Shown: positions 37,057-59,321, counted from the first letter of the stretch. The stretch: 64,000 nucleotides of DNA from Terriglobia bacterium (GCA_963695545.1 OY968796.1:1152001-1216000); one strand, 5' to 3'. Program-made: numbers and translations. The notes: a model not told the origin generated them from the letters alone.

Positions 37057-38505
37057 ATGTCCGTCTCGCTCAATTACGATGAAGCCGTCCGCTACCTGCT
37101 CTCGCTCGGCCGCGAACTGGCTTCGCCGCAACAAGCCAGCGCCACGAAATTCGGCCTTGAAAACATTCGCGCTCTCGTCGAACACCTGGGCCACCCCGAG
37201 CGCCGCTATCCCTCCGCGCTCATCGCCGGCACGAATGGCAAAGGCTCCACCGCCACCATGCTCGCCTCGATCCTCGATTCCGCCGGAATGCGCACGGGCC
37301 TTTACACTTCGCCGCACCTCGCGCGCATCAACGAGCGCATTCGCATCTCCGGCCGCGAAATTTCCGACGACGATTTCGCCGCCGCTCTAGCGCGCATCCG
37401 CAAAGCCATCGAAGAACTGCTCGCAGCCGGCGATCTCGCGGCCCATCCAACTTTCTTCGAGTGCGTCACGGCCATGGCCTTCGATGAATTTGCCCGCGAG
37501 CGCGTCGATTTCGCTGTGTTCGAGGTCGGCATGGGCGGCCGTCTGGATGCGACCAACGTCATCGAGCCCGAAGTCGCCGTCATCACGCAAATCGCGTTCG
37601 ACCACGAAAATTTTCTAGGTCATTCCATCGAGGAAATCGCCGGCGAAAAAGCCGGCATCATCAAGCCCGGCGCGTGGGTGGTGAGCGCCGCGGAAAATCC
37701 ATCCGCGCGCGCCGTGATTCGCGCCCGCGCCGAAGCCCAGCACGCGCGCTTCGTCGAAATCGACGAAGCGTTTCACGTGAAACAATTGAGCGCCCCATAC
37801 GCCAGCGAAACCGCGAACGAAAGCGCGCCCGATTCGCTGCACGCCACCCACTTCGAGGCCATCGAGAAATCCTCAGACCGCGCAATCGAAATCACCGTGC
37901 CGCTCCCCGGCCGCTTCCAGCAGCGCAACGCCCTCGCCGCGCTCGCCGCAGCGCGCCTCCTCGCCGAGCGCGGATTCCCCCCGGTCTGCGCGGAGCGCAC
38001 TGCTTTAATCAACGATGCGGCCATCGCACGCGGCATCGCGCGAGTCCACTGGCCTGGCCGCCTCGAACGCATCGGCGATCGCCCCGCCGTGTACCTCGAC
38101 GGCGCTCACAATCCCGCGGGCGCGCGAGAACTCGTGGCTTTTTGGGATGAGCACTTCGCCGGCGTTCCAATTCATCTGGTTTACGGCGCGCTGCGCGATA
38201 AGCCTGTCGACGAAATCTGCGGCCTACTCTTCCCGCGCGCCGCCACCGTGATCATCACCGAGCCGCGCCAGCCCCGCGCGCTCTCCGCGTCCGTGCTAGC
38301 CGCCATGACAGCCCATTTCGCACACAACGTCGAGATCGTCCCCGATCCCGCCGTCGCTCTCGAGCGCGCGGTCCTCCGCGCCGCGCCCGAAGACGCCGTC
38401 TTCGCCACCGGCTCGCTCTACCTCATCGAAGACTACCGCCGCGGCTGGGCCAACGCCCACGCCGCCAGCGCTTCCTCGCCGCCGATCCGCGGAAGTTCAC
38501 GTTAA
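37057..38505 (+). CDS. folC: Folylpolyglutamate synthase / dihydrofolate synthase
   Basis: AGTNGKGST, YTSPHL, EVGMGGRLDATN, WPGRLE, DGAHNP, GSLY. Confidence 0.95.
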   Translation: MSVSLNYDEAVRYLLSLGRELASPQQASATKFGLENIRALVEHLGHPERRYPSALIAGTNGKGSTATMLASILDSAGMRTGLYTSPHLARINERIRISGREISDDDFAAALARIRKAIEELLAAGDLAAHPTFFECVTAMAFDEFARERVDFAVFEVGMGGRLDATNVIEPEVAVITQIAFDHENFLGHSIEEIAGEKAGIIKPGAWVVSAAENPSARAVIRARAEAQHARFVEIDEAFHVKQLSAPYASETANESAPDSLHATHFEAIEKSSDRAIEITVPLPGRFQQRNALAALAAARLLAERGFPPVCAERTALINDAAIARGIARVHWPGRLERIGDRPAVYLDGAHNPAGARELVAFWDEHFAGVPIHLVYGALRDKPVDEICGLLFPRAATVIITEPRQPRALSASVLAAMTAHFAHNVEIVPDPAVALERAVLRAAPEDAVFATGSLYLIEDYRRGWANAHAASASSPPIRGSSR

Positions 38506-46149: not shown

Positions 46150-46614
46150 GTGAAGGCGATGACCCGAACTCAATTCTCGGGCATAGAGAGATTTTTCTCG
46201 CTGCGCGGCGCGACGCTGCGCACCGGAATCTTCACGGGCCTCGCGCTTTCCGCGGTGCTGGTGGCGTGGGTGCTCGTAGCCAATCGCGTCGCGCAACTTG
46301 AATCCTTCGCGCTCGAGCGCAATTGCGCCGCCGTCGGCGCGTTGCTGGCGCTGATGGCCATTCCGGTTTGCCGGTTCGTGAAATCTCCACGCGCGCTGTT
46401 TATTTCCGGCGTTGCCGCCTGGACGATTTTGACGTTCGCGTATATGGCGTTGGAAGTGTTTTTTCCGCGCCTCGAAGATCGAATGGGGCCGTTGCAACTC
46501 TTCATGCTCGGAGCGACATCCTACGGGCTTCTGGCCGTAATCGGTTGGGTGATCGGCATTATCCGCCTCGCGCGTCACCAGCCCCTGGTAGCGACGCGGC
46601 GCAGACATCCCTGA
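46150..46614 (+). CDS. Hypothetical membrane protein
   Basis: Four hydrophobic segments. Confidence 0.6.
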   Translation: MKAMTRTQFSGIERFFSLRGATLRTGIFTGLALSAVLVAWVLVANRVAQLESFALERNCAAVGALLALMAIPVCRFVKSPRALFISGVAAWTILTFAYMALEVFFPRLEDRMGPLQLFMLGATSYGLLAVIGWVIGIIRLARHQPLVATRRRHP

Positions 46615-46716
46615 TCCTCGCTCGCGCCGTCCCGCTGATCTGTCTCCTTCGGCGTTGTGATTTCCCGCAACGATCCCAACCCGACCCGTGGGCGGTCCAG
46701 CCTTTGACCTGAGGTG

Positions 46717-46881
46717 GGGGGTAGCGCACCCTTTGCCCGCGTCTGTAGTTTTTCAGTCCTCACGCGCAGATTCTACTAATAGCGACCTTCACCCTGGAGT
46801 AACATCGGGCGTCTGTCGGGCTGCGGTGTGCGCAGCCCGGGGTGGCCCATCCTTTGTCCGCTGCGGCGGACAAAGGGTGGG
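46717..46881. repeat. Left arm of the long inverted repeat containing a REP-like hairpin
   Basis: GGGGTGGCCCATCCTTTGTCCGCTGCGGCGGACAAAGGGTGGG; the core 46784-46881 matches the reverse complement of 47480-47576. Confidence 0.85.
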
Positions 46882-46898
46882 TCCGTGGGCTCCCCTTG

Positions 46899-47456
46899 AT
46901 GCCCTGGAATCTCAAATGCTACTACGGCAGCCAAGACCTCCATTTCCTTACGTACACGTGCTACCGGCGGTTGCCACTTCTTTCCTCCGCGCGCGCCAGA
47001 AACGTGTTCGTTGAGATTCTCGCGGAAGTCCGCGATGGCTACGGTTTTCTTCTCGCCGGATACGTCGTGATGCCTAACCACGTTCATCTCCTGATCGGCG
47101 AACCCGCGAAAGGAACGCCTTCCACCGTGATGCAAGTGCTCAAGCAAAGAGTCTCGCGCCGCCTGCGCGCCAGGAAGAGGCGCGCGCCGCAAACGCAACT
47201 CCAGCTCGCATTCGTCGAAGGCGAACTCATGCCGCGGCAATTCTGGCAGCGCAGATTTCACGATTTCAACCTGTGGAGTCACAAGAAAATAATCGAAAAG
47301 CTCGAATACGTGCACATGAATCCGGTGAAGAACAACCTGGTGGAACATTCGAAGCACCGCGCTCCGCGCGGGCCGGCAAAGGACTGGCCGTGGAGCAGTT
47401 GGTCGTACTACGCGAAGGGCGAGCAAGGACTCGTCCGGATCGACGAGAGTTCGTAG
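46899..47456 (+). mobile_element. REP-associated tyrosine transposase (RAYT, Y1 HUH family)
   Basis: HFLTYTC, YVVMPNHVHLL (HUH), FWQRRFHD, EYVHMNPVK, DWPWSS. Confidence 0.92.
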
Positions 47457-47479
47457 AAGCGATCCCGGAAATCGAAAGC

Positions 47480-47643
47480 CCCACCCGTTGTCCGCTGCGG
47501 CGGACAAAGAATGGGCACCCCGGGCTGCACAAGGCGCAGTCCGCCAGACGCGCCACGTTACTCCAAGGTGAAGGTCGTTAGTGGTATCATTCGCGCGTGG
47601 AGCACGAGAATCGCGAGACGCCCATATAGGGTCTGCCACCCGC
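47480..47643. repeat. Right arm of the long inverted repeat containing a REP-like hairpin
   Basis: CCCACCCGTTGTCCGCTGCGGCGGACAAAGAATGGGCACCCCGGGCTG...TTACTCCAAGGTGAAGGTC...CTGCCACCCGCC. Confidence 0.85.
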
Positions 47644-47645
47644 CC

Positions 47646-48119
47646 GTGCAGAACGTACAGAGCTTCCGCGCTTCCCCGGGGTGCACGGCAGCAGTCACAG
47701 CCCTCTCGACGGTTGCCGGAGCCTACGCCGGGGCATCGGTTCTCGGCCCCTTGCTAGCGCCGGCAGGCGCTGCTGCAGGGGCGCCGGGAGGGCCGCCAGG
47801 CGCCGCCGCGGGAGTCGCGGCGGCAGAGGTCGCCGGCGCTGCGGCAGGCGGGGCTGCCGGCCACGCAATCGCCCCAGCCGTTTCAAATATAATGTGCTCC
47901 TCCGGCACGGGGAGCGGAGGCCAGAGCGGCGGGTCGCGCGGCGGAGGCAGTGGGCAGAGAGAGAACCGGGCATTTAAAGAGGCAGTTAGGAGGATCAATC
48001 AGGATAGACGGGAGCCGTTGACCCCGGACCAGGTTCGAGCGCTTCACGACGAAATCCCGAACCAAGGATTTAGCCTTGATGAGATAGTGGAAATCGGCAA
48101 GGGAATGTTCAGGAACTGA
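47646..48119 (+). CDS. Orphan polymorphic-toxin C-terminal fragment (candidate)
   Basis: Gly/Ala-rich hydrophobic segment, GS linker, small helical domain ENRAFKEA...LHDEI...EIVE; begins at the REP boundary with no RHS core. Confidence 0.55.
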   Translation: MQNVQSFRASPGCTAAVTALSTVAGAYAGASVLGPLLAPAGAAAGAPGGPPGAAAGVAAAEVAGAAAGGAAGHAIAPAVSNIMCSSGTGSGGQSGGSRGGGSGQRENRAFKEAVRRINQDRREPLTPDQVRALHDEIPNQGFSLDEIVEIGKGMFRN

Positions 48120-48131
48120 GGACGGAAAACC

Positions 48132-48623
48132 ATGAGTGCTGCAAACGCGGAGATTATGGAAATCGTATCGACTCTAAAGGGCAAGGCGCCCTGGGGGGTC
48201 CGCTTGGGTCATGGTTCGTTCGTAACGATGGAGTTTGGAGACCCGGATCCCAGAGCAGGCGGTCGGGTCATCCATGGCGAGTGGCACCTGTGGCTGTACA
48301 TGTGTAACTGGAGGATCGAGGCCAAACACAGGATTTTCGCGGGATCAAACGACGACCGCAAAGCGATTGAGGCAACGCTGGGAGATTTATCGTTTGACAG
48401 CATCGAATCGATCGACGTTATACAGCCGTCGCTAGATCTCTCCATTCAGTTCCGGTCAGGGATAAGGATACTTACATTTTCGTCTTCCTCTGATCACGAT
48501 GAAGAAGAGTGGAAGCTATTTACCCCCGGCGGGAAATGCCTGCTGGCGTACGGCGACGGCACCTATGAGTACGCCAGAAGCGACGAACCTAGTCCACGGA
48601 CGAGCGGCGGCCCCGAGGCCTAG
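48132..48623 (+). CDS. Hypothetical protein, candidate immunity protein
   Basis: Starts 12 nt after the toxin-like ORF; acidic soluble 163 aa; lower GC. Confidence 0.55.
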   Translation: MSAANAEIMEIVSTLKGKAPWGVRLGHGSFVTMEFGDPDPRAGGRVIHGEWHLWLYMCNWRIEAKHRIFAGSNDDRKAIEATLGDLSFDSIESIDVIQPSLDLSIQFRSGIRILTFSSSSDHDEEEWKLFTPGGKCLLAYGDGTYEYARSDEPSPRTSGGPEA

Positions 48624-48732
48624 ATCGGCGGGTGGCGCAGCCTTTGACGTGAGGGTGGCCCTCGATAAGAACGAAGGCGCTGTCAAGGCGCAGAACGCAC
48701 GTCCCGGTGTTTTACCACCGCGGCGTTGCCAC

Positions 48733-48909
48733 AGAAGATGGAGGACCAAGACTCTGGAAATCTCACGGTAAATCATTTCGCTATGCCCCACACCAACCGT
48801 ATTCGAATAATAACTTATAGATAATATTGACATTACATTGCCGCCCGTGCTATCATGTTGCATGAGCCTCGTACCGCACCTCTCATCCGCATTCCCGCGC
48901 AAGATTTTT
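48733..48909 (+). repeat. 177-bp promoter-containing element, copy 1
   Basis: Ungapped match to the reverse complement of 53221-53397; TTGACA(48827)-18 nt-TATCAT(48851), ATG at 48862. Confidence 0.9.
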
Positions 48910-49395
48910 CCGTTCGGGCCCGGCTCAGCCGCGCAAATCCTGGCGGACAACTTTACGCCCGCACGTCGGAGCCTGCCTGCCGCCCGCCCTGCTCGGCCTA
49001 CAAAATCCCATCGATTGACCACAACCGAACCGTGCTTACCCGCACAAACGCGTCGCCGTAAACCGCTGATTCCAAACCAAATGCAAAAGAGTGCGCATCT
49101 TGCTGAAAATAAACGCTCGCAAGCCCATTGCGCTCAATCTCTTGCGCACTCTTTCTCACTCTTTTCCCGCAAGCCCTGTATTTGCCGCTCTTACGCAAAA
49201 GATACCCGGGGGTGTACCCCCCTCCAGCCGCGATCTCGCTCCCGCAACACGCATCACAAGCTCATCTCAGCCCGCAGTGACGGGGAGGTCGGCTCTCGGC
49301 GTTTCGACGGTCAAAACCTGCGTCCCACTGGCTGCGTGGAAGGCCTTCCGCGGTTCCTGTAAACTATCCGCGGCACAACGCCTAAAAGGGACATC

Positions 49396-50208
49396 ATGAA
49401 ATTTTGCCGATTCCAATTGCTTGAATTCAATGCCGCCGCGGCCGGCCGCTCCGGCGAAACCGTGCATCCCGAGCCGCGCATCGGCCGCGTCGAAGGCGAC
49501 ACGGTTCACGAACTCTCCGGCAGCCTGCTTGGCGAGAACAAGGCTTCCGGCCACACGTGGAAACTTTCCGAAGTGGCTCTGCTGCCGCCGTCGGTGCCCA
49601 CCAAAATCGTTTGCGTCGGGCGCAATTACCTCGAACACGCCGCCGAATTCAACAGCGAAGTTCCCAAGGAGCCGCTGATCTTTCTGAAACCGCCCTCCGC
49701 AATTATTGCGTCCGGAGAAACAATCGTTCTGCCCGCGATTTCCAAGCGCGTCGATTACGAAGGCGAGCTGTGCGTGGTGATCGCGCGGCGCTGCCGAAAA
49801 TTGTCCGATACGGACGACGTTCGCCCGTACATCGCCGGATACACCTGCTTGAACGACGTCAGCGCGCGCGATTTGCAATTCACGGATCCGCAATGGACGC
49901 GCGCGAAAGGATTTGACACGTTCTGCCCGTTCGGTCCCGTGCTCGAGACTGAACTCGATCTCAAGCACACCACGGTTGAGACTTACCTCAATGGCGTTAA
50001 GAAACAGTCCGCGCCGACCACGGACATGATTTTTTCCGTTGATGTTATAATTCGCTGGATCTCGCGCGTGATGACGTTCGAGCCGGGCGACATCATTGCC
50101 ACTGGCACGCCCTCGGGCGTCGGTCCGCTGGCCGCGGGCGACATCGTGGAAGTCGTCGTCAGCGGCGTCGGCACGCTGCGCAATTCGGTTCAGGCGGCGA
50201 ACTCTTAG
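49396..50208 (+). CDS. Fumarylacetoacetate hydrolase family protein
   Basis: KIVCVGRNY, FLKPPS, DYEGEL, NDVSARD, KGFDTFCP, TGTPSGVG. Confidence 0.93.
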   Translation: MKFCRFQLLEFNAAAAGRSGETVHPEPRIGRVEGDTVHELSGSLLGENKASGHTWKLSEVALLPPSVPTKIVCVGRNYLEHAAEFNSEVPKEPLIFLKPPSAIIASGETIVLPAISKRVDYEGELCVVIARRCRKLSDTDDVRPYIAGYTCLNDVSARDLQFTDPQWTRAKGFDTFCPFGPVLETELDLKHTTVETYLNGVKKQSAPTTDMIFSVDVIIRWISRVMTFEPGDIIATGTPSGVGPLAAGDIVEVVVSGVGTLRNSVQAANS

Positions 50209-50242
50209 CGCCAGCCGCGATGCGCGGACAAACAGGAATGAA

Positions 50243-50707
50243 TTGAAGGCGCTCACCGACGATTGGAGGCTCCTTGCCGCAGCGGGCGCGGCCGTCGCGG
50301 TGGCGATTGCCGTCGCGTCGTACGCGAAATTTCGCCGCCGCCCCGATGCCGACGAGATCGAGCGCAGGCGGCGCGCGCACGTGAATCAGATAGGACGCAT
50401 CGCCGAAGGACGCGTCACGGAACTCGCGGAGGTTCCGCCGTCCGCCGCGCCGAACGCTCGCTTCGGGATGTTTCGCGGCGCCGACAAAAATTCCGCCAAC
50501 CGCGCGGCGCGCAACCGAAAACTTCTCTGGTACACCTACTCGATTTCCGGCGTCACGTACGAAACCGCGCAGGACATCACCGGTCTTGAACATCGCGCCG
50601 CCGGACGCGGGCAATTGCTCTCCGGTCAACTAGCAAGCGTGAAGTACGATCCGGCGAACCCGAGCAATTCCATCCTGGTATCGGAAGACTGGTCGGGCCT
50701 GCACTAG
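50243..50707 (+). CDS. Hypothetical TM-anchored protein (DUF3592-like)
   Basis: YTYSISGVTY, VKYDPANPSNS. Confidence 0.65.
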   Translation: MKALTDDWRLLAAAGAAVAVAIAVASYAKFRRRPDADEIERRRRAHVNQIGRIAEGRVTELAEVPPSAAPNARFGMFRGADKNSANRAARNRKLLWYTYSISGVTYETAQDITGLEHRAAGRGQLLSGQLASVKYDPANPSNSILVSEDWSGLH

Positions 50708-50762
50708 CTCGCATCGCGCACCGCGCTCGAATCAACTGAAGCGGCGGAGACCGCTGATTCAG

Positions 50763-51047
50763 ATGTCGCAAATGCCCCGAAAAATCGCGATCGGCGTGTT
50801 CGCAGTGGTCGCAGCATTCAGCGTTCTGCTGGCTGCATCGGTCGCGGTTGTTTTTGCCACGCTGCGCATCGAGCGCATCGCAGCTCCTGCCGCGCACGCG
50901 GTCGCAGCCTTCGGCGAGCTGATTCTTGGCGCGGCCGTGCTGCTCGTGGCCGTCTACATCTCGACGCGCGTCGTCGTTCGCTCCCTCGCGACGGAAGTCG
51001 GCACTACTGGACGGCGCGACCTAACACCTCCCAAGCAAAAACCCTGA
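50763..51047 (+). CDS. Small 2-TM hypothetical protein
   Basis: Two hydrophobic helices. Confidence 0.5.
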   Translation: MSQMPRKIAIGVFAVVAAFSVLLAASVAVVFATLRIERIAAPAAHAVAAFGELILGAAVLLVAVYISTRVVVRSLATEVGTTGRRDLTPPKQKP

Positions 51048-51570
51048 AAGATTGGTGGGTAGGATGTATCAGTCCTCCACGGCGGGCTTCGATCCGCTCT
51101 GACAATCTCATTTGGAGAACGTTTCCCGCGATCGCCTGGAAGGACTCAACCAGAGGAGTGAGATCAATCCTGGCCGGATCATGCTCATATCCGATTACGA
51201 GTACCGCTCGACGCTCAGACCCTGAATACTCCAGCAGTTTGTAGCAATCGCCGATCGTGCTGACGTTTCCGGGATAGGGGTGTAAAAGATTGACCGACCA
51301 ATTCTCCGCTTCCTTGCCGTTGTCTCCAAATGGACGCGTGATCTTGACTTCGACTGCCCACTCGCCCGGGACGAGGAGATCTGAAGTTCTCTTTGTCCGG
51401 ACGCTCCCCCGATACCTCGGCAGCGTGTTTAAGTGCAATGAGATGCGCTTGACCAACTGAGGTTCGCCATACGGTCCAACACCCGGCTGGAACGCCCGAA
51501 AGTTCTCGTGAGACGCATCGACCTGAACGAGCGCGTCGCTGATATCCGAGACTAGTTCTTGCAAGGTCAT
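51004..51570 (-). CDS. Hypothetical protein, possible PD-(D/E)XK nuclease fold
   Basis: E...SDLLV...WAVEVK pattern; lower GC. Confidence 0.55.
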   Translation of the reverse strand: MTLQELVSDISDALVQVDASHENFRAFQPGVGPYGEPQLVKRISLHLNTLPRYRGSVRTKRTSDLLVPGEWAVEVKITRPFGDNGKEAENWSVNLLHPYPGNVSTIGDCYKLLEYSGSERRAVLVIGYEHDPARIDLTPLVESFQAIAGNVLQMRLSERIEARRGGLIHPTHQSFRVFAWEVLGRAVQ

Positions 51571-51626
51571 TGGCGAACCATTGTGAGAAGCGATTAGATG
51601 GCCAGTACCGCCTTTCCCTCCCTGAG

Positions 51627-52754
51627 CTACTGCTGTGGCGGAGGCGCTTCGGAGGGAGGCTGAGAATCGGGCGGAGGCGCGCCAGGGGCGGGCGGCGCAG
51701 CGGGCGTGGCGGTGATTTCGGGAAGGCGGCCGGCGGATTCGATGACTTGCTGCGCGAGATAATTTTCAACCTTAGCTTCATCGCGCGCTTCGGTGAGATA
51801 GGCGGTGCGCAGCAATTGCTCTTTGCGCGTGCGCAGGGCGTCGCGAATGGTTTGCTGTACGGATGGATCGTTCAGATCGCGCTGGCCGGGCGCTTCCTTG
51901 GAGATGAGCTTCAGGATGCGGTAGGAATCCGGGAGGACGATGACGTCACTGATCTCGCCGGGCTTAAGCGCCATTACTGCTTTTTTAAGCGCGGGATTGC
52001 TTTGGCCCAGCGAGGATTCCGGAACGTAACCGAGGTCGCCGCCGGAGCCGGCAGTCTGCGGATCTTCGGAATAATCCATGGCCAATTCCGAAAAATCCGC
52101 GCCGCTTTTCAGTTGCTGCATGAGCATGGCGACTTTGCGGCGAGCCTCAGCGTCGGTGGTGGCGTCGTCGTTCTTGCGATTGCGCACTTCGGGATCCTTG
52201 TGCGGCGTGACCACGATTTGCGCGAGGCGGTATTGGGTTTCCGCAACGTTGAACTGCTGGCGGTTCTCATTATAGAAGTCGGTGACGTCCTGATCGGTGA
52301 TGGTGACTTTGGAATTGACTTCGGCGTTGATGAGCTTCTGGATGGAGAGCTCGCGGCGAATATCTTTTTTGAGGTCGTCAACGGTGACGCCGCGCGCCTG
52401 CAACTGGCGTTGAAATTCATCGTCGGTGTAAGGACTCTTGAATTCGGTGAATTTATCCTCGACATCTCCATCGGAAGCGGACAGGCCGAGTTTCTGGGCG
52501 CGCTCGAGCAGAATTTCGTTGTTGATGAGGTCGTCGAGGATATTGAGCATGAGCGAGAGCGCTTCTTCGTGGGAGGGCATTTGCGCTTCGGGATTGACCC
52601 GCGTGCGGTAATACTGCTCGACCTCGCTGCGCTGAATCTGCGTGCCATTCACTTCGGCCCACACGTCGGGCGAAGGAGCTTCGCCCTTGCGACAGCCGCC
52701 CGCCCAGGCCACGGTCGCCACGATCAGTGCTGCCGAAATCAGCCGCTTTTGCAT
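51627..52754 (-). CDS. SurA/PrsA-like peptidylprolyl isomerase (lipoprotein)
   Basis: AGGC lipobox-like, AEVNG, FSELAMDYSED, GGDLG, LKPGEIS. Confidence 0.88.
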   Translation of the reverse strand: MQKRLISAALIVATVAWAGGCRKGEAPSPDVWAEVNGTQIQRSEVEQYYRTRVNPEAQMPSHEEALSLMLNILDDLINNEILLERAQKLGLSASDGDVEDKFTEFKSPYTDDEFQRQLQARGVTVDDLKKDIRRELSIQKLINAEVNSKVTITDQDVTDFYNENRQQFNVAETQYRLAQIVVTPHKDPEVRNRKNDDATTDAEARRKVAMLMQQLKSGADFSELAMDYSEDPQTAGSGGDLGYVPESSLGQSNPALKKAVMALKPGEISDVIVLPDSYRILKLISKEAPGQRDLNDPSVQQTIRDALRTRKEQLLRTAYLTEARDEAKVENYLAQQVIESAGRLPEITATPAAPPAPGAPPPDSQPPSEAPPPQQ

Positions 52755-52821
52755 CTCGCCTCGTTGAAGCAATGCGCTCCGCGCAGCCGATTAAAGCAAT
52801 GCGCTCCGCGCAGGCCGGTGC

Positions 52822-53013
52822 CTACGCCGCTTTGACGACTTTCCCGTCGCGCAGACACGATGTGCATACGCGCACTTGCTTGCGCACGCCGGAGACCACG
52901 GCGCGAACGCGCTTGAGATTGGGAATCCAGCGGCGACGCCGGGCATTATTGGCGTGGCTGATCACATTTCCATACTGCGGAGATTTTCCGCAAATTTCGC
53001 ATTTCTGCGCCAT
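52822..53013 (-). CDS. rpmB: 50S ribosomal protein L28 (Zn-binding form)
   Basis: CEICGK, GNVISHA, RRWIPNL, CTSC. Confidence 0.96.
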   Translation of the reverse strand: MAQKCEICGKSPQYGNVISHANNARRRRWIPNLKRVRAVVSGVRKQVRVCTSCLRDGKVVKAA

Positions 53014-53220
53014 GTCTGCTCCTTACAGTGTTTCCAGTACGCGTTTCAACAGCCACTAAAACCTACAAAGTATAGCAACGAACGTCACGCCAGCCTAGAA
53101 CGCGGTTTTGGGAAGAGCGATAGGCGGGGGCGATTGTGGCCATGCGCTCCGCGCAGTTGATTAAAGCAATGGGCTGCGCGCGGACCGGGGCCGAATGCTC
53201 GGAACGATCGGACCGTGACC

Positions 53221-53397
53221 GAAAATCGTGTGCGGGTGAGCGGACGGGAGGTGTTGTTCGAGGTTCATACTCAATGGTAGCACGAACGACAATACGATGT
53301 CAATATTACCTATGGGTCATTATTCGAATACAATTGGTGTGGGGCATAGCGAAATGATTTAGTGTGAGATTTGCAGGGTCTTGGTCCTCCGTCTTCT
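53221..53397 (-). repeat. 177-bp promoter-containing element, copy 2
   Basis: Minus strand TTGACA(53303)-18 nt-TACCAT, ATG at 53268; about 143/177 identical to copy 1. Confidence 0.9.
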
Positions 53398-53444
53398 AAC
53401 GATTGCGGTACGGGCGAGATGAGCCGCGACGGTCGAAATATCAG

Positions 53445-53513
53445 AAAACGTCCCGTCTGTCCCCGATGATCCGTCTGTCCCCGATGATCGTCCCCGATGA
53501 TCCCGATGATCCC
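53445..53513. repeat. Decaying tandem repeat (CCGTCTGTCCCCGATGAT)
   Basis: Units of 18, 18, 13 and 9 nt at 53453-53510. Confidence 0.85.
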
Positions 53514-53517
53514 AATC

Positions 53518-53844
53518 TCACCACAGGGGCGGAACACCCGGCTTGTACCAAGGATTGACTTGCCAGAAATGGACGAGTTGCACCGCGCCGATTGCGATTA
53601 GCGAAAGGCCAAGCGCCAGAAAAACGATGCTCGCAATGCCCAGGCGGCCATGAGGATAAGTTCGTTTATATTCTCGAACGAGCGTGAGTGCCTTCACAGG
53701 GATAAACGCATATGTGACCTGTTGGTCAGTCGAAAGTTTTCGGTTTATCTTTCCGATCATCACGTACAGAATCCGCAAGCAGATGCCCACTGCGCTCAAA
53801 CCAACGCAGAAAATTACGGCCGGAACGAACGGAAAAGTTATCAT
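53518..53844 (-). CDS. Small 2-TM protein, candidate RHS immunity paralog 2
   Basis: LYVMIGKIN, REYKRTYPHGRL, HFWQVNP. Confidence 0.7.
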   Translation of the reverse strand: MITFPFVPAVIFCVGLSAVGICLRILYVMIGKINRKLSTDQQVTYAFIPVKALTLVREYKRTYPHGRLGIASIVFLALGLSLIAIGAVQLVHFWQVNPWYKPGVPPLW

Positions 53845-54026
53845 TGCTCCACCCCTTCGGTATTCCACTGTGCCAGCGCGCTAAATTCGGCGGTCCGACG
53901 CTGGCTAGGGTCGGGCGTTCCGCGGGTTTGGCCGCGTCCCCTTTTAATTACCACTTTTCAAAGTCGGCGTCGGCAGCGCTAGTTTCCCGACATCGAACCT
54001 TAAACGCGCGCCCTGCCCTGGAAACC

Positions 54027-54365
54027 TCACCAGGGAGAAGGCCAAGGGGCTGGCCAATAGCTGGGGTTGGCCTGCCAGAAATGGATCAGGCGTACCGCCG
54101 CGACCAAAATTAACAGAATGCCAAATGCAAGGGCAGCGATACGCACGGCATTGAGGCGGCTGTGGGGGTACAGCCGTCTGAACTCTCGGTTGATCCTAAT
54201 CATCTTTGGGAAATGGAAGACCACGTATCCGATCTGCTGCTGGTCCGGGAGTCGTTGGTTTATCTTGCCGACGACCACATACAGCATCAGGGTCGAAATA
54301 TTTATCATTGCAGTGCCCAACGCGATCAAGACCACCGCATCAACCGGTGCAGTTATCATGGACAT
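54027..54365 (-). CDS. Small 2-TM protein, candidate cognate RHS immunity protein
   Basis: Start overlaps the RHS stop; LYVVVGKIN, REFRRLYPHSRL, HFWQANP. Confidence 0.72.
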   Translation of the reverse strand: MSMITAPVDAVVLIALGTAMINISTLMLYVVVGKINQRLPDQQQIGYVVFHFPKMIRINREFRRLYPHSRLNAVRIAALAFGILLILVAAVRLIHFWQANPSYWPAPWPSPW

Positions 54366-56180
54366 GCGGCTTGTCTCGCATAGTAGAGAACGGGGTCAAA
54401 CGGTGCCAACGCGAGGGCGCCTGCACGGCCCATACTGTGCTGCTTTGCTGTCTTGGTGCCCGCGATCGCCGCTCCCGGGTTGCCCGCAAGCGAAGCCCCG
54501 TAGACACGAGCAGTTTTTCCAAACGATGCAAATCCCCCAACTCCTTCGGCAGAGGCAGAGGCGGTAGCAAAAGGTCCCGAATAGCCGCTATTGTCGGATC
54601 CCAGGTCACCGTAGATGAAACCCGAGGAAACTGACGCGCCCTCTCCCCCGCCTTGTCCGCCTCCAGTCCAAGATAAGGTTACGTTGCCGTTGTTATAGTT
54701 GACGACGGTCGAAACGCTGCCAGTAAGCCCGAGCCCGCCAGGGAAATTTACCGTCAGACTCGTCGCGCGACCCTGAGGAAGCGCCGAACAGACCTTCGCG
54801 GCGACTTGGCGGAAGAATCCAGGCGATTGCGGTGATTGGAAATTTCTGTATATCTCTTGGCAAAGGAAGCTCGACATGTCGCACACGAATGTGTCAAACA
54901 ACGGGGGAGGGGGAGGGCATGGCGTATCTCCGCAGCCGTGAGGCGCACGCCGTTGCGCCGCCCATTGTGGGTCGCCGCCGGTAAGTACTTGGCCGCCGTC
55001 GGAACTGCAGTCTGACGGCTCCTCGTCATCGGTAATACTGTCAGCGGGGCTGGCTTGCCTGTCGCGTCCAATCGTGTAGAGGCATCCGTCAGGACTTAGT
55101 CCGCTCGGATCGGTTAGGGTGACTGGGTTGTTGCGCACGTACGTATAGAGATTCAACTGCTGTGGATCCGTTGGATCGGCCTGGGAAATTCCGGATGGGT
55201 CCGGGGACATAAAGCGGGCTCCGGAGAAAGTGTAGAAGCGCGCGTCGAAGTTGTAGAGGTTGGATTCGGTGTCGAATTCCTTGTGGGTAAATTTGTAGTT
55301 ATTGGTGCTGGTCTCGGTGGCGACGTAACACTCGTTGCCGTAGGGACAGTAGTCGATATCTTCGAGGGTGTTGCCGCTCGAATCGGTCAGGATGCGGGTC
55401 GAGTCGAGATCGTCGGCGAAGTAATATTCGACGTCGCCGGAGGAGGAGGCGTCGCGGCGGGCGATGCGTGAGCCGTTCAGGAAGACGTACTCGTGGAAGG
55501 CGCTGTCGGTGGTGCTGCCAGTTCCGTCAGTCTCTTCAAGCGCGTCGGTGCCGGTTCCGTACCAATAGAGCTCGTAAAAGGGAGGGTCGGTAGCCATGTA
55601 CTTCTCGACGCGCTTGCCATCGCCGTCGTAAAAGTAGTTCACGCCAGCGGTGGAGGTCAACTCGTTTTCGGCATTGTAGGTGTACGTGGGAGACGTCGGC
55701 GGACAAGGCGAACTCGTCTCCGCAAGCAGATTGCCCGCGGCGTCGTAGCAGTAGCCGGAGATCTGATTCTGGGCGGTGGCTGCCATAGAGGCGGAGGACT
55801 CCTCGAACGGCAGGCTCTCGTAGGACTGGAATTGAGTCAAATTGCCCCAGGGGTCAATCTGGTAGGACTCGCCCCAAGCTCCGCTAGCGGCAGACGCGAT
55901 CCGATTCAGCGGATCATAAGCAAACGTTTCCGATCGCGATGAGGTGACGCCATTTGCGATATGCGTGATGTTCCCATTGTTGCCGGTATGGGGACTGGAA
56001 GGGCACGCGCCGCCGGACAGCGGATAGTAACAATAAGTGAGATTGAGTTCCGCGCTGCCCGTGGAATACGCCAGGATCGAGGACGGCTGGAGTCGAGGAT
56101 TGTACGAAGCGTCGAGATTGATGCCCGTGAATGAGCCGCCTTCGCCCATGAGCGCCGACGTTAGCGCACCGGCGGGATTG
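54356..56180 (-). pseudogene. RHS repeat protein, C-terminal part (RHS core plus toxin tip)
   Basis: YDPLNR, YDAAGN, YDGDGKR, KFTHKEFD, FMSPDP, NLYTYVRNNP, DPSGL followed by a variable Gly-rich tip. Confidence 0.9.
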
Positions 56181-56220
56181 TGACCAGCCCGAGTTTTTGT
56201 ACCACGGTGAATGAGAGAGT

Positions 56221-57063
56221 CTACATCACAGCCGTCGACGGCGAACCGAGAATTGGCGGCACCAAGGGGCTACAGGCCACCGGCGCCGGTGGCCTGTAGC
56301 CCAGCGCTGAGTGCGGACGCAGCGTGTTGTACACCATCCGCCATTTCTCGATCACGATCTGCGCTTCCTTCAGCGAGTAAAAAATCTCTCCGTTCAAACA
56401 TTCATCGCGCAATTTCCCGTTGAAGCTTTCGCAGTAGCCATTCTCCCAAGGGCTTCCCGGTTCGATGTACAGCGTCCCCGTTCCCACCTTCGCCAGCCAA
56501 CTCCTCAGCTCCTTGGCCACGAACTCCGGGCCGTTGTCCGAGCGAATATGTTCCGGAATTCCCCGGTAAAGCATCACGTCCGCCAGCGCTTCGATCACTT
56601 CGTATCTCCCCAGCCTTCTCGCCACGCGGATCGCCAGGCACTCCCGCGTGTATTCGTCGATCAGCGTCAGCATTCGCAGTGTTCGGCCGTCGTGGGTCAT
56701 CGCGCTCACGAAATCGTAGCTCCACACATGGTTGGCTCGTTCCGGCCGGAGACGAACACACGATCCGTCGTTCAACCACAGCCTTCCTCGCGGCCTTTGT
56801 CCCTGCGGCACTTTCAGCCCTTCGCGCCGCCAGATCCGCTGCACCCGATCCTTGCCCACATACCAGCCCCGTGCTTGCAACAGCGCCGTGATCCTCCGAT
56901 AGCCGAAGCGCCCGTACTCGCTGGCCAGCGCCACGATGTCTCGCGTCAGCGCGTCTTCATCCGTTCGGTGGATCACCTCGTAGCGTTGTGTCCCTCTCCA
57001 CTGCCCCAGCAACCGGCAGGCATGCCGCTCTGATACTTGGTAGCTCTCGCGTGCATGCTCCAC
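56221..57063 (-). CDS. IS3 transposase OrfB (DDE)
   Basis: FGYRRI, WSYDF, IDEYTRE, SDNGPEF, PWENGYCESFN, RPHSALGY. Confidence 0.93.
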   Translation of the reverse strand: MEHARESYQVSERHACRLLGQWRGTQRYEVIHRTDEDALTRDIVALASEYGRFGYRRITALLQARGWYVGKDRVQRIWRREGLKVPQGQRPRGRLWLNDGSCVRLRPERANHVWSYDFVSAMTHDGRTLRMLTLIDEYTRECLAIRVARRLGRYEVIEALADVMLYRGIPEHIRSDNGPEFVAKELRSWLAKVGTGTLYIEPGSPWENGYCESFNGKLRDECLNGEIFYSLKEAQIVIEKWRMVYNTLRPHSALGYRPPAPVACSPLVPPILGSPSTAVM

Positions 57064-57086
57064 CGCGCTACGTCGCCGCTCAGGGC

Positions 57087-57365
57087 TTAGAAGTTTCCCT
57101 CTGCCACATCCTTCAGAATTTGCTTCTCCAACGAAAGCTCCGCCACCAACCGTTTCAGCTTGGCGTTTTCCCGCTCCAACTCTTTGAGGCGTTTCGCTTG
57201 ATCCAACTTCAGGCCGCCGTATTCCTTCCGCCAGCGGTAGTAGGTCTGCGCGGTGATCTCGGCTTCCTTGCAGGCTTGTGGGGTGCTCTTTCCGTTGGCG
57301 ATTTCAACTTCAACTTGCCGCAGCAGCGTGACGATCTGCTCCGGCTTGTATCTCCTCATCGGCAT
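57087..57365 (-). CDS. IS3 transposase OrfA (HTH), probably fused to OrfB by -1 frameshift
   Basis: QTYYRWRKEYGG, LKELERENAKLK; junction GAGGGAAACTTCTAAGCCC. Confidence 0.92.
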   Translation of the reverse strand: MPMRRYKPEQIVTLLRQVEVEIANGKSTPQACKEAEITAQTYYRWRKEYGGLKLDQAKRLKELERENAKLKRLVAELSLEKQILKDVAEGNF

Positions 57366-57430
57366 ACCAGCTTCCCTCCAGAGTGAATTCTCTCTCACTC
57401 CCGCTGGTACAAAAAACCCCGGTCAGGTCA

Positions 57431-59229
57431 GTGATGAAGGTTCCCGACGAGACCATTCTGCTGACGCCGGTCAGATTTCCTCGCACGGTTTGGGATGCCG
57501 AATAGTTGGAATCGTCGTGGTTCGTCGCGCCGGTCTGGGAGGACAGTGAGGTAGCGTCGTAGGAAAAGTTCGTCTGCGCAATCATAGTTCCCCTGCTCGA
57601 TCCGCTGCCACGATACACACTGATGGACGATGGGAGGTCTAAGATATGCTGATTCTCGTACGTGCTGGTTTGGACGTAACTCACGTCGGTTTCCCGAAGG
57701 AGGTTGCCGTTGAAATCGTAGACCTGGACCAAATCGGGGAGGTACGCGTAGCCCGTATACCCGTATTTGCTTGTGGATGACATTCCGTTTCCTATCGATG
57801 TCGTGACCGATTCCACGTCTTGGAGGTCATCCTCGACATACGTGGCGCTTCTTAGCAGAGTTCCAGAGGACGAGCCCGCGTAGAAGTTCGCCACATACTG
57901 GGTCAATATAAAGTAGTCCGCGGGGCAGTAATGATACGTGAAAGCGTAGGTTGATTGGTTCTCGGTGCCGCTTTCATCGGCCGGGTCCGTAACCGTCAGT
58001 GCGGCATTTCCCAGCGACGGATCGCCCCCCTGACAGGAAATCGCTGACCAGTTGAACCCCCACGTGGCCCCTTGCTCGGTAAGCGTTGCCAGCTTTAGGT
58101 CGCCGACGAAAAAACCGTCCCCGTTGGGTGGATTGACGACTTGGTAGGTGAACCCCACCTCGCCGCCCGTGGGCAACGTCATGCTGGTCATTTGCCCATA
58201 GTCTCCTGGACTCGTTCCCCCGTCGTAGCCGAATTGATAGCTTCTGCCGTCGGGTAGAGTGATGCTTTGTACGACCATCATCGGGCCTGTGAACTGAGTG
58301 GTGCCGTTAAAGCCGCCAACCCAGGCGGGGAAATTGGTGCTTACCTGGATGGTTTCCATCTGAATTGTGGCTCCGCCATAACTGTAGGTAGGCGAGGAAC
58401 TCGAGCAATTGGCGGTGCATTGCATATTCGGAATTTGCCGCCCAAGTTCGTCTTGAAGGTTGCTCGTGCCTGGAAAATAAAAATTGCCGTTGGAATCCTC
58501 GACGTTGCCAGAGCAGGCGTACTCGTATTGCGTACTCCCGGTGTAGCTGGCCGCGCTGCTGGTACACACGGATGCTCCGTGCTTATCCCAAATCTGTGCG
58601 GTCATCGAGGTAGCGCTTATGGTGACGGATATCTGGTAGCCGCTCGAATCCTGCGCGTAACCGGGCGTGACCTGGTTCGCGTAACCGCAGGCTGGCATCG
58701 AGTTGTCAAGGGTGCCGAGCCCAAACTGATGCTCTGTCCCGCTCGGGTCGATGTATACGAAATTTTGCCACGATTGGTATGACCAAGGGGAAGACCCATT
58801 GCCGCATTGCACGGATGAGCCTTCGCTAGTAGTGGACCCGAACATGCCGACAGGGCTGCCGGTAAATCGCCAGCCGGCGGTTGAATTGTCCGGAGTAGCG
58901 TCGTTCCACACGTAATTGTAGCCTTCGCCGGTGGGGTACGAAGATATCGAGTAGAACTGGCTGTCATAGGTCATCCCCAGATTGACAGTCTGTCCGTTTC
59001 GTTGCTTGTAGCTGAGAAGGGGGAACGCCAAGTGGACGTTCCCGTTCTCCAAATTGACCTCGCCCATGGGAATCTGCATGGAGGGGCGACTCGGCGGCGT
59101 CGGTCCAAGGCGCATCATGATGTCGTCGTCGTCGTTCTGTGCGACGAGCGGTAAGCAAAAAGCAACAAGAAGGAGCGCGCAGATTGAAGAAATACAGAAG
59201 ATCACGGCAGACGGGGTGCGCATGAGCAT
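57431..59229 (-). pseudogene. RHS repeat protein, N-terminal part with Sec signal peptide
   Basis: Signal peptide, VNLENGNVH, TYDS, TLPDGRSY, TLPTGG, RGNLT; cut by IS3. Confidence 0.85.
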
Positions 59230-59321
59230 TCCCTCCGCAGGGCTTCGAGATGTGGTTGTCGCCGCGCCACGAAACATTTCACGGCGCCATGATTCTCTTA
59301 TTTCTATAAAGTGTAGTCGCG

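Follow-up and report, generated by a model that had tools for sequence, protein, structure and literature searches.

Dispersed leaderless promoter cassettes and the strand-skew switches ahead of them in a Terriglobia chromosome

The locus and its two arms

A 64,000-nucleotide stretch of the chromosome of a Terriglobia bacterium (GCA_963695545.1, OY968796.1; positions 1,152,001-1,216,000 of a single 4.16-Mb contig), called here the window, carries two inverted 177-bp arms that face each other across a run of ordinary genes. The arms are two members of a dispersed family of promoter cassettes, one complete and the other truncated, and the cassettes of this family point at places where the strand asymmetry of the chromosome switches sign. 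The genes between the arms (49,396-53,013, assigned with Pfam) are FAH, a DUF3592 gene, two unassigned open reading frames (ORFs), a SurA-type peptidyl-prolyl isomerase (PPIase) gene and rpmB; they hold the skew switch of the locus. The closest named relatives of the FAH gene belong to Candidatus Acidiferrales, a soil lineage. The source genome is labelled G000, and four of its cassettes are referred to by name: E1, the copy at 48,733; E2, the copy at 53,397; and E3 and E4, the copies at 1.474 and 1.710 Mb of the chromosome.

The left arm (48,733-48,909, plus strand; alignment and genome search) is the 5' part of the complete cassette E1, and the right arm (53,221-53,397, minus strand) is the truncated cassette E2, which is without repeat array or terminal motif. 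As the initial annotation stated, 48,733-48,909 aligns without gaps to the reverse complement of 53,221-53,397, with 143 of 177 positions identical and 89 of the first 100, and both arms are AT-rich, with GC contents of 45.2% and 46.3% against 60.6% for the genome. They form the longest inverted repeat of the window, with a longest exact block of 28 bp. The promoters that had been called are also present. That of E1, a predicted sigma-70-type promoter with an extended -10, reads TTGACA-18-TATCAT (48,827-48,856, plus strand), and that predicted for E2 reads TTGACA-18-TACCAT (53,303-53,274, minus strand); in both, a TG precedes the -10 and an ATG follows it after 5 nt.

Upstream of the promoter lies the palindrome TATTCGAATA (48,800-48,809, plus strand, in E1; 53,321-53,330, minus strand, in E2), the upstream box of the family, which occurs in 49 copies in the source genome and is a putative protein-binding site. 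Downstream, a leaderless frame of 166 codons in E1 (48,862-49,362, plus strand) is open through the repeat array and has no protein conservation. The corresponding frame of E2 has 35 codons (53,161-53,268, minus strand); its homology stops after about 16 codons and is followed by a repetitive extragenic palindromic (REP) sequence of another family. The AT-rich repeat array of E1 contains the inverted pair AAAGAGTGCG ... CGCACTCTTT (49,086-49,154, plus strand), and the terminal motif ACCCGGGGG-TGTA-CCCCCC (49,204-49,222, plus strand) marks the 3' end of the family. A 3' extension of E1 (49,223-49,286, plus strand) is common only to E3 and E4.

The cassette family

The initial annotation described a repeat pair. 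A genome-wide count by BLAST and profile searches found instead a large dispersed family with 94 copies of the promoter module; 22 more from repeat-array models bring the total to 116 candidates, of which a few are weak. E3 (1,474,555-1,473,931) and E4 (1,709,950-1,709,297) are full copies, about 550 bp long; a shorter copy lies at 3.538 Mb, and many others are diverged. The order of parts does not vary: TTCGAA boxes, one to three in number, then TTGACA, a spacer, TGnTAnnnT, ATG or GTG, a variable middle, the AT-rich repeat array and a CCGGGGG-type end. The repeat array is of two kinds, subfamily A in 61 and subfamily B in 15 of the 76 well-scored copies. The only sequence kept family-wide is TTCGAA, TTGACA, TGnTA and the start codon. 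The promoter spacer has diverged in sequence while its length and the boxes are kept, as expected for promoters under selection. The spacer measures 17-18 nt in 91/94 copies and ATG or GTG stands exactly 5 nt after the -10 in 86/94, which, together with the open frame, supports the earlier reading of a promoter with a leaderless start.

Members of the E1 subfamily are 81-87% identical. The initial annotation had also noted that conservation peaks upstream of the -35 and had suggested protein-binding or recombination sites there. The peak is real (54/59 and 29/35 identical positions, against 23/30 and 37/53 beyond); the suggested sites are not supported, the blocks being an insertion-sequence remnant of the IS110 family and the subfamily junction. 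The higher identity arises because this four-member subfamily was recently copied.

Cassettes are evenly spaced along the chromosome: the coefficient of variation of the spacing is 0.58 against 0.98 for the null, a value that none of 2000 random sets reached. A co-oriented gene follows 69 of the 94 promoter copies, and the other 25 face antisense genes. DnaA boxes, FtsK-orienting polar sequences (KOPS) and boxA were sought by their consensus patterns. DnaA-type boxes lie upstream of 36 of the 94 promoters (0.6% expected), mostly one box each and none at E1 or E2, and their variant is that of the densest box cluster of the genome, just upstream of dnaA. The motif GGGNAGGG, the KOPS consensus, is found in 15/15 subfamily-B ends and in 0/61 subfamily-A ends, and was therefore rejected as a common end motif. 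A boxA-type antiterminator in the repeat array is likewise not supported: a similar motif occurs in both orientations (47/61 and 44/61) and is absent from subfamily B. The rRNA leader of the genome has its own boxA.

Against the anatomy of MITEs (miniature inverted-repeat transposable elements) and Correia elements, the left and right ends of the 76 copies share no exact inverted match longer than those of mismatched pairs. No direct repeat above chance, as a target-site duplication would leave, was found in these copies; the copies are old, short duplications would escape, and there is no close empty allele for comparison. An Rfam search of 46-60 kb at E up to 5 gave no family match in the cassettes, only three chance-level matches outside them. 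No description of the family was found in the literature searched; supplements and most subscription papers lay outside its scope, so that survey tables of mobile promoters or RNA motifs could list members. The family is apparently undescribed.

The leaderless frame and the repeat array

Over codons 3-82 of 86 copies the leaderless frame contains 11 stops, compared with 126-320 in the five other frames, and it is open in 80/86 copies against 22% of shuffles. In 73 of 76 copies no stop interrupts it up to the end of the terminal motif, whichever of the three phases is used (36/20/20); the stops beyond lie at scattered distances, between 18 and more than 3000 nt after that motif. Neither amino-acid constraint nor a fixed frame, as a protein family would show, was seen in these copies: besides the varying phases and scattered stops, the differences between E1 and E3 fall 20/18/14 on the three codon positions and comprise 34 non-synonymous and 10 synonymous codon changes. 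Only 2 homologues of the E1 product were found among 67 candidates, both database proteins. By these patterns the open frame is selected and the peptide sequence is not, which suggests that the passage of a ribosome through the leader matters.

The inverted pair of the repeat array keeps a distance of 62-63 nt in 44 of the 61 subfamily-A copies (by pattern) and has no sense-strand RNA bias, which would suit a DNA site. The consensus fold of the 61 subfamily-A arrays has an energy of -0.56 kcal/mol, the sense strand is the stabler in 3/44, and G-U pairs number 29 in sense against 115 in antisense, giving no sign of a structured RNA; covariation is not scorable because the outer stem is nearly invariant. 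The pattern of the inverted pair had no match in the viral contigs searched.

A strand-skew switch ahead of the cassettes

The G/C skew at four-fold degenerate sites, taken on the cassette strand, runs at -0.2 to -0.37 between -6 and +2 kb of the cassette, changes sign around +4 kb and lies at +0.12 to +0.18 between +8 and +14 kb. The profile is alike in co- and counter-oriented genes. The rise is present in 107/116 copies, against a null mean of 55.8 and maximum of 71 (300 draws) and 69 when the orientation is reversed. Counted from the switches, 80 of the 95 that go upward have a cassette aimed at them; the corresponding figures are 27% for random positions and 3 of 100 for downward switches. 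Isolated copies show the rise too, without dependence on neighbouring cassettes, and no upward switch is seen at 160 convergent gene junctions that have no cassette. These profiles rule out gene orientation, convergent junctions and neighbouring cassettes, each in turn, as the source of the skew. The upward steps are sharp and the declines gradual, with 38 steps above +0.5 and 4 below -0.5.

In the window the four-fold skew is -0.27 over hslV-fn3, -0.13 at 49.4-51.0 kb and +0.33 at 51.0-55.2 kb. In a finer profile the stretch at 36-45 kb reads -0.25 to -0.48, and the value at 51 kb is +0.46; this change of sign places the switch between E1 and E2, both of which point towards it.

Skew was sampled in six other genomes (G001, G008 and G015-G018). 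Replication sets of 20 of about 31 detected copies in G015 and 20 of about 24 in G001 were taken outside the stretches already fetched and picked blind to skew; the rise was found in 20/20 copies (two near zero) and 18/20 copies, respectively. The offset of the switch differs by genome: about +4 kb in the source genome, +2.5 kb in G001 and +0.5 to 1 kb in G015. In 200-kb samples, cassettes stand at or just before 3/5 switches of G018, and G016 has flat skew and no cassette that was found. As a separate observation, a 200-kb region of G017 (G017:C3 1.10-1.30 Mb, loci L215-L224) has sharp upward steps, and four models and a pattern detect no cassette there.

The same site was compared across 63 loci, 51 of which have enough flank and 48 of these no cassette match. 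The rise at the locus is 0.60 in the window; of the 48 relatives in which no cassette was detected, only one exceeds 0.3. L060 and L064, which carry a cassette upstream of hslV, have skews of +0.67 and +0.58 across the genes whose value in the window is -0.27. The gap between the upstream membrane gene and FAH is 6-93 bp in most relatives and holds 2.8 kb of accessory DNA in the window (46,614-49,396). In the two closest relatives it carries different cassettes, in L021 in the same orientation and of a different subfamily, in L022 reversed, where the skew is only a partial fit with the cassette rule. The same gap and orientation in L021 would be consistent with replacement of one cassette by another in place. 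The two relatives also hold different cargo in this gap, as in an insertion hot spot behind the cassette.

The footprint and the oriC forks

The T/A skew at four-fold sites is positive in 11/11 200-kb bins between 1.2 and 3.4 Mb and negative in 9/10 others, with dnaA at 1.364 Mb, and GGGNAGGG is partly polarised in the same manner. The oriC is still at work, because both polarities switch at dnaA and opposite it. Its forks leave a T/A skew of +0.033/-0.035 and no four-fold G/C skew, and no G/C switch is seen at dnaA. The cassette footprint is of another composition: C 0.54/G 0.285 on one side against C 0.31/G 0.51 on the other, an exchange of C for G that leaves GC content constant. The change at two-fold sites has the direction seen on the oriC leading strand, that of T/A the opposite one. 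Whether a cassette runs with the oriC fork (57 copies) or against it (59 copies) makes no difference to the profile. Ordinary extra origins were rejected on these grounds, the oriC signature being different and the profile indifferent to fork direction; the dense cluster of DnaA boxes lies upstream of dnaA. A calibration of polarity by ribosomal-protein genes was abandoned as confounded by codon choice; 648/1434 genes of the skewed zones lie on the G-rich strand.

The best-fitting kernel has starts exponentially spread ahead of the promoter, with a mean of about 8 kb, and tracts of about 9 kb each way, and explains 48% of the variance in 2-kb bins. The share falls to 35% for a fixed offset, to 29% with a one-sided lobe and to 13% if the origin sits at the cassette; random orientations give 14-20% and rotated positions at most 2%. 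The best-fit departure point lies within about 1 kb of the promoter. A departure near the promoter that is blind to gene layout points to something that leaves the cassette in the promoter direction.

Sequences at the 5' ends and neighbouring genes

The initial annotation held that no transposase or terminal inverted repeat explains the arms. No terminal inverted repeats are above chance in the 76 copies. The transposase part is partly wrong, for 48,653-48,779, a stretch that takes in the initial ~47 bp of the arm, is the non-coding terminus of an IS110-family element. It is 79-85% identical to ends that lie about 250 bp from transposases with PF01548/PF02371 in relatives, and it matches a repeat found in 11/31 genomes; in the relatives it is the far end of an IS110-type element, inside a REP-like sequence. 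Here, too, the remnant starts inside a REP-like remnant (48,627-48,661, plus strand), of the family flanking the RAYT gene (REP-associated tyrosine transposase) at 46,842. PF02371 has no match in the source genome, where no intact IS110 was found and only about 130 bp of one end is left.

E2, E3 and E4 retain only the last ~47 bp of this remnant and are headed by another REP-like motif, GACAGACGGGACG, which lies 158-160 bp before the -35 in all three, at E2 in the subfamily 5' flank (53,398-53,472, minus strand). All 5/5 copies of this motif in the source genome lie 38-505 bp upstream of cassettes, one of them behind a truncated RAYT gene. A REP-like motif stands at the head of E1-E4 and of several further copies, but most copies have none; the genome has six Y1_Tnp matches. 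The IS110 and REP-like pieces are passengers of this single subfamily of four members, and the remaining copies are without them.

The accessory DNA upstream of E1 includes a RAYT gene (Y1_Tnp, 46,842-47,456) between 139-bp inverted arms that are 71% complementary (46,716-47,644, plus strand); one contig joint on opposite strands falls at these arms (46,881/47,467). A third REP-like family, GCGCGGAGCGCA, with many copies in the genome, occurs at 37,979-38,020, 52,764-52,822 and 53,134-53,192, the last two on both sides of rpmB. In another genome, five tandem partial copies of the IS110 end lie at about 81-bp spacing (G015:C1 941,225-941,622). Beyond E2 are two similar small membrane ORFs (53,518-53,868 and 54,027-54,365) and an RHS-repeat gene on the minus strand (54,356-59,277) split by an IS3-type element (56,221-57,398). 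Elsewhere in the chromosome a single 16S rRNA gene was found (about 1,600,300-1,602,400, minus strand), with a terminator-like hairpin within about 270 nt and no 23S evident in the next 500 nt; the rRNA genes are possibly unlinked.

Interpretation

The reading preferred here, to which we give a probability of about 0.45, is that the facing arms share a skew switch which records DNA synthesis started repeatedly a few kilobases ahead of them, outside oriC, and probably triggered by the long transcript of the cassette. The cassette promoter would fire and a ribosome, loading at about +1, would shield the C-rich RNA from Rho until the array has been passed, which would explain why the frame is kept open in any phase. 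A protein on the repeat array, perhaps the zinc-finger protein encoded behind some copies, might let RNA polymerase run on for kilobases. An R-loop or a break at a variable distance (mean about 8 kb) could then prime repair-type synthesis over about 9 kb each way, with a C/G asymmetry unlike that of oriC forks. The DnaA-type boxes of about a third of the copies may tie firing to the cell cycle, and new copies may spread by REP/RAYT-linked duplication, replacing older copies in place. Every step from transcription onward we infer from sequence patterns.

A wider proposal can be put forward only tentatively and is the less likely of the two: that Acidiferrales chromosomes carry about 110 evenly spaced, oriented secondary starts of DNA synthesis beside oriC, at which a leaderless, translation-shielded transcript launches two-way synthesis and leaves a saw-tooth skew like that of eukaryotes. 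E1 would be a complete start and E2 a newly born, truncated one in the same start zone.

Several observations weigh against synthesis started ahead of the cassettes. The skew of G017 oscillates as strongly (standard deviation 0.26) with no cassette in 200 kb, G008 has cassettes and weak skew (standard deviation 0.11), and one relative (L071) reads +0.42 over hslU with no cassette found in range; the genes downstream of FAH, moreover, differ among most relatives compared. Within the source genome the young copy E3 scores negative (-0.30), 16/18 atypical or weakly scored copies score positive, some of them sharing a neighbour's switch as E2 does, and copies without a DnaA-type box resemble those with one (0.38 and 0.37). 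Genes point towards the switch rather than away from it. The T/A polarity is opposite to that of the oriC leading strand, so that the origin-like character comes from G/C skew and two-fold sites only, and to our knowledge no bacterial process produces an exchange of C for G at constant GC content. RNase HI and Rho genes are present. Finally, the distance to the first antisense gene adds no fit (R2 0.377 against 0.342-0.374 permuted), which counts against priming by untranslated antisense RNA; the rank correlation, at 0.21, was weak. For want of a gain in fit, that gene was rejected as the place of priming.

Alternative readings

The least unlikely alternative is that the cassettes are packaging start sites of a domesticated virion cluster resembling a gene transfer agent (GTA), whose terminase would cut there or ahead, the repair or uptake of fragments leaving the skew. 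The source genome does contain such a GTA-like cluster, a single-copy set of terminase, head and structural genes (3,386,000-3,413,000, L106) with an IS3-type element between a 93-aa gene and the major head gene; it is conserved family-wide and occupies the same chromosomal position. The major head protein is found in 11/31 genomes, 77-92% identical within the family, and flanks are shared in G008 and G016. Regularly spaced, non-random bidirectional starts have been proposed for the Dinoroseobacter GTA, without a motif (PMC5786225).

The link from this cluster to the cassettes runs through a CCCH zinc-finger gene that follows 4/116 cassettes in the source genome, is present in 18/31 genomes and stands behind the end motif in 8/14 loci inspected in other genomes, where one more pattern match is a REP. 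Its products (L101:479-979, L102:403-915 and L103:141-572) combine the finger with a helical pair. The cysteine spacing seems to us reminiscent of WRC-type fingers; Pfam WRC gave no match. No Pfam, PHROG or fold assignment was obtained for the protein, no relative was found in viral contigs and no viral match at E 0.001. When the protein was compared with a small-terminase fold in mind, the model had a pLDDT of 75 and a best PDB Z of 7.1, to helical pairs only, and the nearest named atlas cluster, DUF5763 at 0.80, is a lead only. Three of the four zinc-finger genes in the source genome end in a D-x-P-x-P-D tail like that of P0025, a protein of the virion cluster, and P0025-like genes lie directly before the terminase gene in five relatives. 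The nearest atlas clusters of P0025 itself, phage-rich hypothetical proteins and DUF5681, are again a lead only.

G017 fits packaging in having both the cluster and an oscillating skew. Cluster and cassettes do not, however, occur together consistently. G018 (100% complete, 90 contigs) has cassettes, switches and 12 zinc-finger matches and no head or terminase match with the queries used, whereas G016 and G017 have the cluster and no cassette in 200 kb each. G010, G013, G016, G017 and G019 have the cluster without a zinc-finger match, and in G016 the skew is flat. The zinc-finger tails seen in G015 (4/8) and G008 (1/2) are unlike the tail of the cluster protein of the same genome, the gene accompanies only 4/116 cassettes in the source genome, and packaging leaves the promoter and the open frame unexplained.

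The second alternative, which we consider improbable, makes the traveller a DNA motor or nuclease, such as FtsK, that is loaded one-way on the array or G-run and breaks the DNA ahead, with repair leaving the skew and the promoter only opening or regulating the site. It would suit a switch offset that ignores gene layout and varies by genome, an inverted pair that resembles a DNA site in its lack of strand bias, and the KOPS motif GGGNAGGG in every subfamily-B end. Yet the subfamily-A ends, which have none, show the same switch, no motor or nuclease gene travels with the cassettes, and the selected open frame points to a role of the transcript.

Doubtful as well, and placed third, is a mobile promoter, selfish or co-opted, that would insert or persist behind skew switches arising from another cause and would act by driving neighbouring genes. 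The co-oriented gene behind 69/94 copies and the switches of G017 without a detected cassette are what it would predict. So is the youth of the E1 subfamily (81-87% identity), since skew at synonymous sites needs long times, and promoter reuse is common in prokaryotes (PMC3575422). Against it, the orthologous locus has a skew that tracks the cassette, the L021 cassette of another subfamily in the same gap and orientation fits replacement in place, and the even spacing and the 25/94 copies facing antisense genes would be unexplained.

That the cassettes encode a small basic protein family under shared control is very improbable: the start codon and open frame are strongly kept and two database proteins resemble the E1 product, but the phase switches freely, stops are scattered, non-synonymous changes (34) outnumber synonymous ones (10), and the skew is left unexplained. 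The reading of the initial annotation, that the 4.3 kb from FAH to rpmB can invert through recombination at the arms, is rejected, for although inverted arms with 81% identity and a 28-bp exact block permit occasional homologous inversion, the orientation is that of the window in each of the 10 loci, out of 80 related ones, where FAH, surA, rpmB and the upstream membrane gene stand together, contigs of four soil runs (one study; contigs drop rare variants) bridge the left arm in 4/4 and the right arm in 3/4 without an inversion joint, the inner skew continues that of the flanks, no serine or tyrosine recombinase was found among 18 ORFs scanned (44.9-59.9 kb), and copies lie genome-wide instead of at the segment ends, with three further facing pairs less than 15 kb apart in the source genome.

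Comparison with known systems

Mobile promoters, Correia elements, ERIC and REPINs (PMC3575422) resemble the cassettes as dispersed non-coding promoter repeats with unrelated genes downstream, lineage-specific and absent from the orthologous site of most relatives. The cassettes differ in having no terminal inverted repeats or target duplications above chance, in their roughly 110 diverged and evenly spaced copies with an open leaderless frame, and in an oriented mutational footprint of about 20 kb, a feature unmentioned in PMC3575422. With IS110/IS1111 and REP/RAYT elements they share the first ~47 bp of both arms, which come from an IS110 end, and the REP-like motif that heads E2, E3 and E4; these likenesses are confined to the four-member subfamily, in a genome without IS110 transposase.

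GTAs are alike in having a virion cluster in the host and regularly spaced sites that act both ways. D. shibae has seven peaks and no motif, and Bartonella has run-off replication from one phage-derived origin (PMC5786225); the co-occurrence of cassettes and cluster over 31 genomes is, as described, inconsistent. In E. coli, widespread low-frequency R-loop origins have been proposed for constitutive stable DNA replication (cSDR; PMC4287441). The likeness to these oriK sites lies in transcription-linked starts chromosome-wide, outside oriC, each with a small chance of firing. cSDR is a property of mutants and has no dedicated cis-element, whereas the source genome has RNase HI and Rho and antisense position is irrelevant to its switches.

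For cyanobacteria, the accessible part of PMC7198777 describes DnaA-independent replication from multiple origins with irregular GC skew, and there, as here, many local switches replace a two-replichore GC skew. In the source genome, by contrast, T/A skew and GGGNAGGG still switch at dnaA, and the G/C switches are tied to a defined oriented sequence, of which that part of PMC7198777 names none. The cassette lacks a defining feature of each known family tested. Among bacteria whose GC skew is irregular, DNA synthesis from many sites has been shown in cyanobacteria, with no initiating sequence named in the same part of that source. In the present case a defined, oriented element predicts local strand asymmetry, accounting for about half of its genome-wide variance, and does so in several genomes of an abundant soil lineage. 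An element that reshapes mutation over about 20 kb around some 110 copies would be new, whether replication, repair or packaging is the cause.

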